DNA of 64,000 bases from the NCBI GenBank assembly GCA_963745035.1, contig CAVUVW010000014.1, forward strand, positions 448,001-512,000. The letters are read 5' to 3'. Origin of the DNA: an uncultured delta proteobacterium (GTDB lineage Bacteria > Desulfobacterota > Binatia > UBA9968). Made by a program: the position numbers and the translations under genes. The notes beneath the pieces are model-generated. The model did not search any database. It saw nothing but the letters and a program-made list of their open reading frames with translations, and had not been told where the DNA came from. Shown here piece after piece: positions 3,381 to 5,990 of the stretch; position 1 is the stretch's first letter, and every line of letters begins with the position of its first letter.

Positions 3381-4728
<1,348 letters not shown>

Positions 4729-4938
4729 CGCGAAATCGGCTCTGGCGAAACAAGAATCAAGGTTGTTCTGCTCCTGAGAGCGGCCGGCGCGGGCGCGGGA
4801 TGAGCTTGCAGTGAATAAAACACGCTGTCGTTGTAAGCACGCTTCAGTTCACCGTCATTGCTTCTATTATGCCGGCAGGCGTGTTCAACAAAATTCGACC
4901 ATGCGAGTCGAAATATTTTCTAAAATGATATTTTTTTC

Positions 4939-4968
4939 TTGACATACAAGTTGTTGTGCCTTAATAAT
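4939..4968 (+). promoter_or_regulatory. Sigma70-type promoter for the Lys-rich micropeptide
   Basis: TTGACA at 4939-4944, TAATAAT 17 nt downstream, AT-rich UP-like tract upstream. Confidence 0.65.
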
Positions 4969-5085
4969 CGAAGCACCTACAAAATATGGGAGGGTTTTTG
5001 GTACGAGATTTGTCTTCGCCTGAGTTACGCTTTAACGCCTGTCAACTGAAAAGCCCACCCGCGGAATCCTAATAAGGAGGTGCTT

Positions 5086-5136
5086 ATGGCTGCTAAGAAG
5101 AAAGCCAAAAAGAAAGCCAAAAAGAAAAAGAAGTAA
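5086..5136 (+). CDS. 16-aa Lys/Ala-rich basic micropeptide MAAKKKAKKKAKKKKK
   Basis: TAAGGAGG SD (5073-5080) 5 nt before ATG; TAA stop; flanked by promoter and terminator; too short for the ORF track. Confidence 0.7.
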   Translation: MAAKKKAKKKAKKKKK

Positions 5137-5219
5137 GCACGAATTTGTGAGGTGGTTGTGGTTGTGGTTTAAACCCTCCTTACTCTCAGGCGACAAGGTA
5201 ACCGTTCTGGTTGCCTAAT

Positions 5220-5261
5220 ACACAGCGCCCTCCGACACCCAATCGGAGGGCCTTGTGTTTT
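5220..5261 (+). terminator. Intrinsic terminator
   Basis: GCCCTCCGA (5227-5235) / TCGGAGGGC (5243-5251) stem followed by CTTGTGTTTT. Confidence 0.75.
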
Positions 5262-5423
5262 CAGTGGTCCGCGCGCGTTTCCATTCTCCAAAATTAATCT
5301 TGCCGCTGTGCGGCTTTGACAAGCCGCCGAGATGTAACTCGCCCAAAACTTCACGCGGCGGCTAGACATCCGCTGAGTCCGTCGGTATTGCGCCGCTCGG
5401 AGCAGTTGGTTAGAGTGCTCTCC

Positions 5424-5990
5424 ATGAAACTCGTGGCTTTTGATTGCAGCCTCAGGATCGCGCTTGCTCTCGCGGCGAGCCTGATCGCGCTGAGCCGCGC
5501 GCCGGCGTGGAGTCAAGCGAAAGTCGACTATAAAGTCGTGCCGATTCTGCAACCGATGAAGGACAACGCGCCGACGCCGGATTTTAATTTGGCCACTCCG
5601 GACGGAAAGAAGCTCTCGCTCAAGGATTTTCGCGGCAAAGTCGTGTTGCTGAATTTCTGGGCGAGCTGGTGCGTGCCCTGCCGCGAAGAGATGCCGGCGA
5701 TGGAGAAGCTCTACCAGGAATACAAGCAGAAGAATTTCGTCGTGCTCGCGGTCGCCGTCAAAGACCGCAAGCAAGACGCCATCGATTTCGTCAAGGAGCT
5801 GAAACTGACCTATCCGATTGCGCTCGATCCCGAAGCGCAAGTCGGCACGCTCTACGGCGCCTGGGGATTGCCGGCGACGTATCTGATCGGCCCGAAGGGT
5901 GAAGGCTTGGCGCGCGGTTGGGGTCCGGCGGATTGGTACAATCAAGCCACGCGCAAGCTGATCCAAGATCTCGTCGACGGCAAGAGATGA
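5424..5990 (+). CDS. TlpA/ResA-family thiol-disulfide oxidoreductase
   Basis: Signal-like N-terminus, [12 protein letters not shown] CxxC motif, GLPATYLI cis-Pro loop; upstream of ccdA. Confidence 0.9.

Follow-up and report, generated by a model that had tools for sequence, protein, structure and literature searches.

Bacterial proteins that are little more than low-complexity polycations are known from the histone H1-like Lys/Ala proteins (NF038053, PF07382 HC2, AlgP of Pseudomonas), and messengers whose untranslated regions (UTRs) reach over the coding region are known from two further systems. As far as the cited passages go, the Bacillus subtilis hbs mRNA, encoding HBsu, combines a strong Shine-Dalgarno (SD) sequence with a 14-bp interaction between its 5' and 3' UTRs (passages of Braun, Durand and Condon, 2017; PMC5737220), and the Staphylococcus aureus icaR mRNA carries in its 3' UTR an anti-SD motif that pairs with the SD (passages of PMC3868564). 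Here we describe a micro-gene that invites comparison with all three. It lies at positions 5086-5136 on the + strand of a 64,000-nt stretch of DNA, below called the window, from an uncultured delta proteobacterium of the Binatia (assembly GCA_963745035.1, contig CAVUVW010000014.1, positions 448,001 to 512,000). The best explanation for positions 4975-5262 of the window is a monocistronic mRNA of ~290 nt with a 16-residue peptide, MAAKKKAKKKAKKKKK, as its sole product.

The micro-gene and its conservation

The open reading frame (ORF) reads ATG GCT GCT AAG AAG AAA GCC AAA AAG AAA GCC AAA AAG AAA AAG AAG TAA, and script translations concur on MAAKKKAKKKAKKKKK as its product. Eleven of the 16 residues are Lys (five AAA and six AAG codons) and four are Ala, which gives the peptide a net charge of roughly +11. 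Nine nucleotides of the SD (AAGGAGGTG) are complementary to the 3' end of the 16S rRNA of the same genome (...GGATCACCTCCTTT). Upstream, TTGACA-18 nt-AATAAT (4939-4968) agrees with the consensus at 11 of 12 positions, and no other sigma70-like site occurs in 4600-5600, where shuffled sequence has 0.5 on average; within the promoter, ATTTTTTTCTTGACATAC is invariant across the 26 aligned units that reach that far, and the A/T-rich block upstream of the -35 box may be an UP element. The unit occupies an intergenic gap of ~695 bp that opens at the stop codon of the upstream gene (4728) and closes at the likely start of the redoxin gene (5424). In the 64-kb window the Lys/Ala-coding string plus stop occurs once, with no match of any kind in 100 window shuffles, and the 7.43-Mb assembly holds no other ATG-started, SD-preceded Lys-rich ORF of at least 12 codons, so the gene is single-copy.

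An earlier, sequence-only reading of the window had proposed just such a stand-alone Lys-rich micropeptide gene at 5073..5136, an interval that corresponds to the SD plus the ORF. Its residue count was reproduced by translation, as were its TTGACA promoter, its perfect SD, its intrinsic terminator (a 9-bp stem at 5227-5251 with a T-rich tail) and its gap of about 700 bp, and the comparative data below strongly support its claim of a monocistronic micro-gene overlooked by gene callers. The mixed AAA/AAG usage it had pointed to is indeed present but ordinary, since this genome (58.1% GC) uses AAA for 47% of the Lys codons in long ORFs.

Relatives were sought by DNA similarity in 41 related genomes with a query of 351 nt (4930-5280), and 28 of the 41 matched: 21 of 24 genomes of the genus, all five of a sister family (f2) and 1 of 11 of another family (f3). 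The SD and an ORF of 15-19 codons are kept in 27 of the 27 Binatia loci that match the unit over most of its length, and the frame is intact in every one; frame-breaking changes at homologous loci, on which the sequence-only reading would have given up the gene, were thus not encountered there. Weak DNA matches in f3 and a second match in one genome (G014) proved to be the N-termini of unrelated longer proteins and were discarded.

Pooling the similarity loci with loci from the pattern scan described below gave 60 units with both UTR boxes, 39 of them distinct. Their ORFs amount to 30 distinct sequences that encode 11 peptides, among them MAAKKKAKKKAKKKK, MATKKKAKKKAKKKK, MAAKKKAKTKKKAKKKR and MAAKKKAKAKPKKKAKKKK. 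One locus, L002, is from a genome flagged as unpublished (G005), and none of the results hinges on it. ORFs of 13, 15, 16, 17, 19 and 30 codons occur among these Binatia-type units, with the character of the peptide maintained. The 16-codon class (11 distinct DNA versions) has 1, 0 and 13 variable sites at codon positions 1, 2 and 3, respectively, and the 15-codon class (eight distinct versions) has 1, 0 and 7. At pattern-found loci the first eight codons can vary only where the search pattern permits; in codons 9-16, which the pattern leaves unconstrained, six of eight third positions are variable and none of the 16 first and second positions is. Lys codons exchange A and G at position 3 only and never turn into Asn codons. 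Mean pairwise identity in the genus-level set is 93.2% for the SD, 89.9% for the ORF, 84.3% for the 3'-UTR core, 71.7% for the 5' UTR and 70.7% for a G/U tract behind the stop codon, and between families the ORF retains 80.5% identity versus 56.4% for the 5' UTR. No other part of the unit is as well conserved as its ORF and SD. The codon comparison shows purifying selection at the protein level, and we regard it as very probable that this is a genuine translated micro-gene.

Presence is uneven across the order. Of 86 genomes of the order that are at least 90% complete, 34, counting that of the window, have the exact pattern (SD plus MAxKKKAK, which misses variants with other starts): 29 of the 54 others of its own family (f1), four of four of f2 and none of the 27 of f3. 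A phylum-wide draw had it in 2 of 401 genomes. The reversed pattern, used as a control, had no match in all 401 and all 86 genomes. A variant of 29-30 codons, known from six loci, gave only short matches over the Lys tract when used as a query in the order, with no convincing variant at those loci; because of this outcome, we place the six loci outside the 86 genomes searched.

The third positions of the + frame coincide with those of one antisense frame, which means that the strand cannot be fixed by periodicity alone, and our strand call is made from the SD, the ATG, the orientation of promoter and terminator, and the poor antisense ORFs. An alternative would be that no gene lies on the + strand at all, the ORF being either a chance product of purine-rich low-complexity DNA or the antisense of a hydrophobic Phe/Leu-rich type I toxin, with the + transcript as its antisense RNA. 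The reverse complement of a Lys tract does always encode Phe/Leu, an antisense ORF overlapping by at least 24 nt is present in 99 of the 110 distinct units, and long-range 5'/3' pairing is a hallmark of hok-type toxin mRNAs too. These antisense ORFs, however, range from 9 to 116 codons, have an SD-like box in only 16 and an ATG in only 30 of the 110 units, and are missing altogether at two loci (L009 and L011), whereas promoter, SD, ATG and T-tail terminator are all oriented to the + strand, and the empty shuffles and reversed-pattern controls argue against a chance ORF. We therefore hold this alternative to be very improbable. A hok-like type I toxin-antitoxin system was also considered as a candidate and rejected, the + ORF being hydrophilic and the antisense ORFs inconsistent or absent.

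Similar micro-genes in other phyla

Species-representative genomes were scanned for GGAGGT-N3-8-ATG GCN NCN AAR AAR AAR GCN AAR, a pattern fixed to an MA[x]KKKAK start, which returned at least 119 loci. Among the matches listed, 93 of the 104 ORFs with a stop inside the locus have 45 codons or fewer, 36 of these 93 with the Binatia UTR boxes and 57 without, and peptide length grades continuously from 11 residues up to more than 140. The 57 box-less short ORFs, again among the matches listed, come from metagenome-assembled genomes labelled Terriglobia, Verrucomicrobiota, Planctomycetes, Patescibacteria, Chloroflexota, WOR-3 and Alpha- or Gammaproteobacteria; a terminator-like hairpin follows 50 of them, and past residue 8 they consist of 60% K, 16% A, 7% T, 5% R and 4.5% V, with no acidic or aromatic residues. 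The remaining 26 of the at least 119 rows are longer or open-ended, some of them histone-H1-like and others with another domain behind the Lys-rich start.

As the pattern dictates how the peptide begins, the test was redone by DNA similarity around three of the hits. In Terriglobia 16 of 41 genomes matched, 15 of them with an ORF of 12-17 codons (for example MATKKKAKKAATKKKK, MAAKKKAAKKPAKKKK and MATKKKAKKKKH), and in 10 of these 15 the alignment is confined to the segment from SD to ORF. In Verrucomicrobia 16 of 41 genomes matched, and nine of the 16 loci have ORFs of 12-18(22) codons; in Patescibacteria 19 of 41 matched, 17 with ORFs of 13-59 codons behind a conserved SD context. The UTRs of all three versions are unrelated to those of Binatia. 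This second search shows Lys-rich micro-genes of comparable kind, 12-59 codons long and set in unrelated UTRs, in at least three other phyla.

Several features of individual lineages deserve mention. The Patescibacteria loci (L198-L220), from genomes of ~1 Mb, have Lys-rich ORFs of 13-59 codons with VAKK/PAKK repeat units in one conserved SD context, and their spread in length suggests rapid expansion and contraction of repeats. At two loci (L053 and L085) a CTTCCTCC box, complementary to the SD, follows directly after the stop codon. At three others (L036, L037 and L104) a U/C-rich run after the stop complements the last Lys codons when read by eye, which would place the end of the ORF in a hairpin.

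Gene neighbourhood

The gap in the window is flanked by a sigma-54 response regulator gene upstream and by genes for a TlpA-like redoxin and CcdA downstream. Across the genus, the redoxin gene follows the unit in eight of eight loci, with DsbD_TM/CcdA next in the three of three scanned that far, and the upstream gene is a sigma-54 activator in four loci, a Na/sulfate symporter in two, a response-regulator cyclase in one and an ABC binding protein in one. In f2, three of three loci have the unit between a divergent MotA/ExbB gene and a downstream alpha/beta hydrolase gene. The synteny with tlpA-ccdA that the sequence-only reading had anticipated consequently holds within the genus (8/8 loci) but not in the sister family (0/3). 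In Verrucomicrobia the neighbour is a PolB-type exonuclease gene in three of three loci, and in Terriglobia MerR with hydantoinase B in two of three; the neighbours of the Patescibacteria micro-ORF have no Pfam match. Some units of other phyla precede the MerR regulator or PolB-type exonuclease gene, and others converge on a gene of the opposite strand. In the three Verrucomicrobia loci examined (L182, L186 and L189) the micro-ORF stands immediately 5' of the PolB-exonuclease-like (PF10108) gene. No ribosomal or translation gene was seen near the micro-ORF in the four lineages examined. Since the neighbours differ between families, the unit is an independent gene and not a leader of tlpA-ccdA, and it moves between neighbourhoods as such.

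Another reading of a short ORF followed by a terminator upstream of co-oriented genes would be the leader peptide of a transcription attenuator, here one governing tlpA-ccdA, and the redoxin gene is indeed downstream in every genus locus. The synteny data largely refute this: the sister family has the unit ahead of an alpha/beta hydrolase gene, the other phyla have an exonuclease gene, a MerR regulator or a convergent gene in that place, and in the window ~160 nt with a TTGACA of their own separate the terminator from the redoxin start. Cytochrome-maturation genes have, to our knowledge, no tie to lysine supply, and across the families and phyla compared, no downstream regulated operon with a relation to the repeated codon stays linked to the unit. 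We give attenuation next to no chance.

Two further observations concern the surroundings of the gene in the window. The stretch from the sigma-54 regulator gene to the promoter of the micro-gene contains, at 4894-4912, a hairpin (TTCGACCATGCGAGTCGAA) flanked by T-rich sequence on both strands, probably the terminator of the regulator gene. The only 16S rRNA gene found in the assembly (G000:C14:330545-332102, L221; 3' end CACCTCCTTT) is on the same contig, ~120 kb away from the window.

Predicted structure of the messenger RNA

For the structure of the transcript, 26 Binatia-type units were aligned, a consensus was computed with RNAalifold and pairs were counted per alignment cell (Table 1). 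The consensus predicts a 3'-UTR hairpin, the terminator and a long-range helix, P1, that joins the 5' UTR to the 3' UTR. In P1, 98.3% of cells are paired; of its nine pairs, seven do not vary and one exchanges C-G, U-A and U-G, and its mean ensemble probability is 0.49. P1 thus constitutes a conserved 5'/3'-UTR complementarity within one mRNA. In controls with slid strands, the whole four-helix structure including P1 was paired in 36-58%. At the six loci with the 29-30-codon variant P1 is kept and lengthened to roughly 12-15 bp as read by eye. In the 3'-UTR hairpin, five of eight pairs have changed on both sides yet remain paired (96.6% of cells), and four of nine pairs of the terminator stem covary. 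The data support P1 and the 3' hairpin as predicted elements of the fold. The full transcript also folds better than shuffled versions (z = -3.5).

The remaining pairings are less settled. The 3'-UTR box holds CCTCCTT, seven nucleotides of the 16S tail, which could pair with the SD of its own mRNA (7 bp) or, through the box, with the 5'-terminal box (9 bp). Complementarity to the SD is present in 97.3% of cells with a mean ensemble probability of 0.00, and complementarity to the 5' box in 93.1% of cells with zero covariation and a mean probability of 0.12 in single-sequence ensembles; in both cases covariation is uninformative because both strands are invariant. Pairing of the C-rich leader box with the SD (five pairs) shows one-sided changes only and, with an ensemble mean of 0.05, is not favoured. 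The SD itself has a mean unpaired probability of 0.24 in single-sequence ensembles, and is thus mostly paired, albeit with inconsistent partners. A G/U-rich tract, GG runs split by U or G, follows the stop in 26 of 26 Binatia-type units. Its duplexes with the C-rich leader box reach -15 to -22 kcal/mol with covariation absent, and no partner strand for the tract was found; one idea is that it forms a two-tier G-quadruplex or serves as a site for peptide or protein. At the loci with the 29-30-codon variant a similar G/U tract stands at the 5' end of the leader instead (leaders of L066, L089 and L133).

These features raise the possibility that the functional product is chiefly the RNA itself, acting as a sponge or as a regulatory or dual-function small RNA, with translation of the Lys tract serving only to control folding and stability or to sense the supply of Lys-tRNA or ribosomes. 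Islands of the UTRs are invariant over two families (21 of 98 columns in the 5' UTR and 14 of 47 in the 3'-UTR core), and the 5'-terminal box, the 16S-tail-like CCTCCTT box, P1 and the fold z-score would all fit an RNA role, as would the AAR repeats, which would suit an (A-R-N)n site of Hfq type. Such a role is harder to reconcile with a conservation peak that falls on the ORF and not on the UTRs, and with the persistence of the ORF on unrelated UTRs in Terriglobia, Verrucomicrobia and Patescibacteria. At no Lys codon does the third position become C or T, which an RNA-only constraint would permit, and substitutions by Arg, Thr and Val preserve a basic peptide and not a run of Lys codons. Searches against Rfam gave no family: the region 4600-5600 of the window has only two sub-threshold chance matches, and in 20 loci from other phyla nothing overlapped the units, the only matches being a tRNA and hairpin noise. 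An RNA as the main product is, in our judgement, unlikely. One sub-threshold match in the window, to c4-a1b1 (E 0.053; 18.7 bits, where the gathering score is 46.7), coincides at 5294-5330 with a small hairpin that holds a TTGACA 5' of the redoxin gene, and is most likely due to chance or a piece of the redoxin promoter.

Table 1. Features of the micro-gene unit, in window coordinates.
Feature	Position	Strand	Basis or remark
Promoter	4918-4968	+	conserved A/T-rich upstream block; -35 TTGACA 4939-4944; -10 TAATAA/AATAAT 4962-4968
5' UTR	4975-5072	+	~98 nt; start near 4975 inferred from the -10 box
5'-terminal box TACAAAATATGGGAGGGTTT	4978-4997	+	nearly invariant
GGAGGGTTT	4989-4997	+	complementary to 5171-5179 (AAACCCTCC)
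P1, 5' strand TCGCCTGAG	5016-5024	+	RNAalifold long-range helix
C-rich leader box GCCCACCC	5053-5060	+	paired with SD by RNAalifold
Shine-Dalgarno TAAGGAGGTG	5073-5082	+	AAGGAGGT invariant, 26/26 units
ORF MAAKKKAKKKAKKKKK plus TAA	5086-5136	+	sequence, alignment, codon-position variation, shuffles
G/U-rich tract TGTGAGGTGGTTGTGGTTGTGGTTT	5146-5170	+	composition conserved, sequence variable
3'-UTR box AAACCCTCCTTA	5171-5182	+	holds CCTCCTT; alignment
P1, 3' strand CTCAGGCGA	5185-5193	+	RNAalifold, pair counts
3'-UTR hairpin AGGTAACC-GTTCT-GGTTGCCT	5196-5216	+	RNAalifold, covariation
Intrinsic terminator	5227-5261	+	9-bp stem-loop 5227-5251, then T-rich tail CTTGTGTTTT

Cover by contigs of soil RNA libraries

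Of six soil RNA-library runs that match part of the window, four, from four studies, were analysed. Contigs cover parts of 4918-5215 in all four, and two of them, one of 230 nt (4986-5215) and one of 191 nt (4918-5108), have no mismatch. In one pair of runs the contigs start at 4986 and 4994, in the other pair at 4918-4920. The latter starts lie ~20 nt 5' of the -35 box, exactly where conservation between genomes begins. The 5' end of the transcript near 4975 is a prediction from the -10 box, and the contig starts disagree among runs. No contig covered 4700-4917 or 5244-5379 in the four runs, an absence that does not count as silence. Taken together, the contigs hint at abundant transcription and are not proof of it.

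Searches for known families

The 16-mer is below the 20-residue minimum of the search tools, and longer relatives were used as queries. Six relatives of 22-37 residues had no match in NCBIfam and only a chance SNARE match (E 7.5) in Pfam, and a phmmer search of 177,635 distinct Protein Data Bank (PDB) sequences, ribosomal ones included, with a 30-residue relative gave none at E <= 10, low complexity limiting this test. Exact look-up of 10 variants (22-38 residues) in a collection of 15 billion proteins found none. A homology search with a 46-residue Patescibacteria variant returned 147 candidates of which none scored, a result of little weight, as composition correction probably removes such sequences. 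The ESM Atlas contains the 30-residue variant, and its nearest clusters, of 721, 105 and 86 members and named 'hypothetical protein', belong to no Pfam family; we take this as a lead only. No description of such a micro-ORF was found in CC-licensed PMC papers and bioRxiv. The empty searches of families, structures, protein collection and literature agree with the view of the sequence-only reading that the system is undescribed.

The search of the PDB bears on another explanation, namely that the peptide is a small lineage-specific ribosome-associated protein, lodged in rRNA like bTHX, bS22, bL37 or eL41, and that its expression signals reflect ribosome stoichiometry. A peptide so short and so basic, with signals like those of ribosomal protein genes (a strong promoter and the 9-nt SD match) and retained even in the ~1-Mb genomes of Patescibacteria, would be in keeping with this, and work on bS22 reportedly shows that tiny ribosomal proteins are routinely missed by annotation. 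It is at odds with the absence of a PDB chain match for the 30-residue relative, with the Lys/Ala composition, where tiny ribosomal proteins tend to have Arg plus aromatic residues, and with a neighbourhood free of ribosomal and translation genes in four lineages. A drift in length from 12 to 59 residues among close relatives would fit a fixed rRNA pocket badly, and neither a fixed length or sequence (13-59 residues in Patescibacteria) nor universal presence in the lineage was found (34 of 86 genomes of the order, and absence of the pattern from 27 of 27 in f3). A ribosomal role strikes us as improbable, to about the same degree as the RNA role above.

Discussion

The function that we favour, with a probability of roughly 45%, is that the 16-mer is an abundant polycation that would bind DNA or other polyanions. 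The promoter with its A/T-rich block, the 9-nt match between SD and anti-SD and the helix between the UTRs suggest that the peptide would be made in large amounts, and P1 could couple mRNA stability to translation in the manner of hbs mRNA in B. subtilis. The product would be a genetically encoded polycation, a minimal counterpart of histone H1 tails and protamines, that may neutralise and condense polyanions, DNA first and possibly RNA or polyphosphate. More speculatively, feedback on the peptide's own translation may come from the conserved boxes, G-rich and C-rich, that surround the SD. Arguments for a polycation are the Lys/Ala composition in a genome of 58% GC, a length that is plastic among close relatives, the continuum to long H1-like proteins, the lack of a translation-gene context and the hbs-like design of the mRNA; composition and continuum in particular lead us to prefer, among the roles that the sequence-only reading had put forward (a protamine-like binder of the nucleoid, RNA or polyphosphate, or a small ribosome-associated protein), a polyanion binder to a ribosomal protein.

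Several points weigh against this proposal. Binding to polyanions is argued from composition and analogy only. The similarity across phyla may reflect convergence of low-complexity sequence and not homology, and the gene is patchy, thus either dispensable or replaced by variants that went undetected. The genome already has three HU/IHF-family genes. The SD has no consistent partner in the ensembles, which leaves the feedback idea without structural support. The RNA evidence consists of unstranded contigs, for which DNA carry-over and collapse of strain-conserved k-mers are possible, and two of these begin ~20 nt upstream of the -35 box. Finally, the codon periodicity of the + frame is shared with an antisense frame. 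We also considered the peptide as a substitute for polyamines or HU; the genome has spermidine-synthase-like domains along with its three HU/IHF-family genes, and there is no signal of replacement.

A bolder version of the polycation proposal would be that several phyla encode a 'peptide polyamine', a stand-alone oligolysine of 11-30 residues, produced in bulk from a dedicated, structurally closed mRNA and having a general part as counter-ion to DNA, RNA or polyphosphate and as the agent that condenses them; in Binatia, translation of the gene would be set by free peptide or by ribosome supply through the 16S-tail-like box and the G-rich boxes. The phyla concerned are Binatia, Acidobacteriota, Verrucomicrobiota and Patescibacteria, checked in relatives, and Planctomycetota and other groups represented by single pattern-scan hits among the matches listed. 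We offer this extension tentatively and think it rather unlikely. If it were true, these genes would be among the shortest conserved non-leader protein-coding gene families known. Genes of fewer than 30 codons are invisible to standard annotation, and a selected ORF of 12-17 codons with near-maximal expression signals, recurring in unrelated phyla, would point to an overlooked and simple piece of cell physiology, namely an encoded polycation beside polyamines and HU-type proteins.

Comparison with known systems

Leader peptides of amino-acid attenuators likewise consist of a micro-ORF and then a terminator, the difference being that the downstream genes vary here. The mRNAs of hok type share long-range 5'/3' pairing, and differ in that the present peptide is hydrophilic and the hydrophobic ORFs antisense to it are not gene-like. 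The tiny ribosomal proteins bTHX, bS22, bL37 and eL41 are similarly very short, very basic and easily overlooked by annotation; they are set apart by the lack of a PDB chain match, the variable length, the Lys/Ala composition and the absence of a ribosomal gene context.

The likeness to H1-like proteins is one of composition: residues past position 8 in the relatives are 79% K and 14% A, and some long ORFs sharing the MA[AT]KKKAK start match PF07382 HC2 as well as NF038053 ('histone H1-like DNA-binding protein'), with scores short of the cut-offs. H1-like proteins, however, have 100-200 residues with a tandem-repeat array, as opposed to 16 residues here (13-19, and one of 30, in Binatia-type units) and no array. 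No H1-like family profile was matched above its cut-off, either by the relatives of 22-37 residues or by the long ORFs, and the genome of the window contains no long Lys/Ala-rich protein. By length and profile the peptide thus falls outside the H1-like group, and a resemblance in the possible mode of action may remain; in sequence of this kind, homology with H1-like proteins and convergence would look alike.

At the level of the mRNA, the closest parallels are icaR and hbs. Like icaR, as described in the cited passages of PMC3868564, the unit has a 3'-UTR motif, CCTCCTT, that complements its own SD (7 bp; 97.3% of cells); unlike it, the pairing here has neither covariation nor ensemble support, and the box may pair with the 5' end instead. 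The hbs mRNA differs in its unrelated sequence, in the RNase and stability effects shown for it, the helix of our unit being a prediction, and in its product, a folded HU dimer as opposed to a 16-mer. Within the scope of the cited passages, the two messengers nevertheless have in common that they are monocistronic, encode a small basic protein, and combine a very strong SD with a long-range 5'/3'-UTR helix, here the 9-bp P1 (passages of PMC5737220). If the predicted helix forms, the micro-gene mRNA would join hbs as a second natural example of a messenger whose two UTRs pair with each other.

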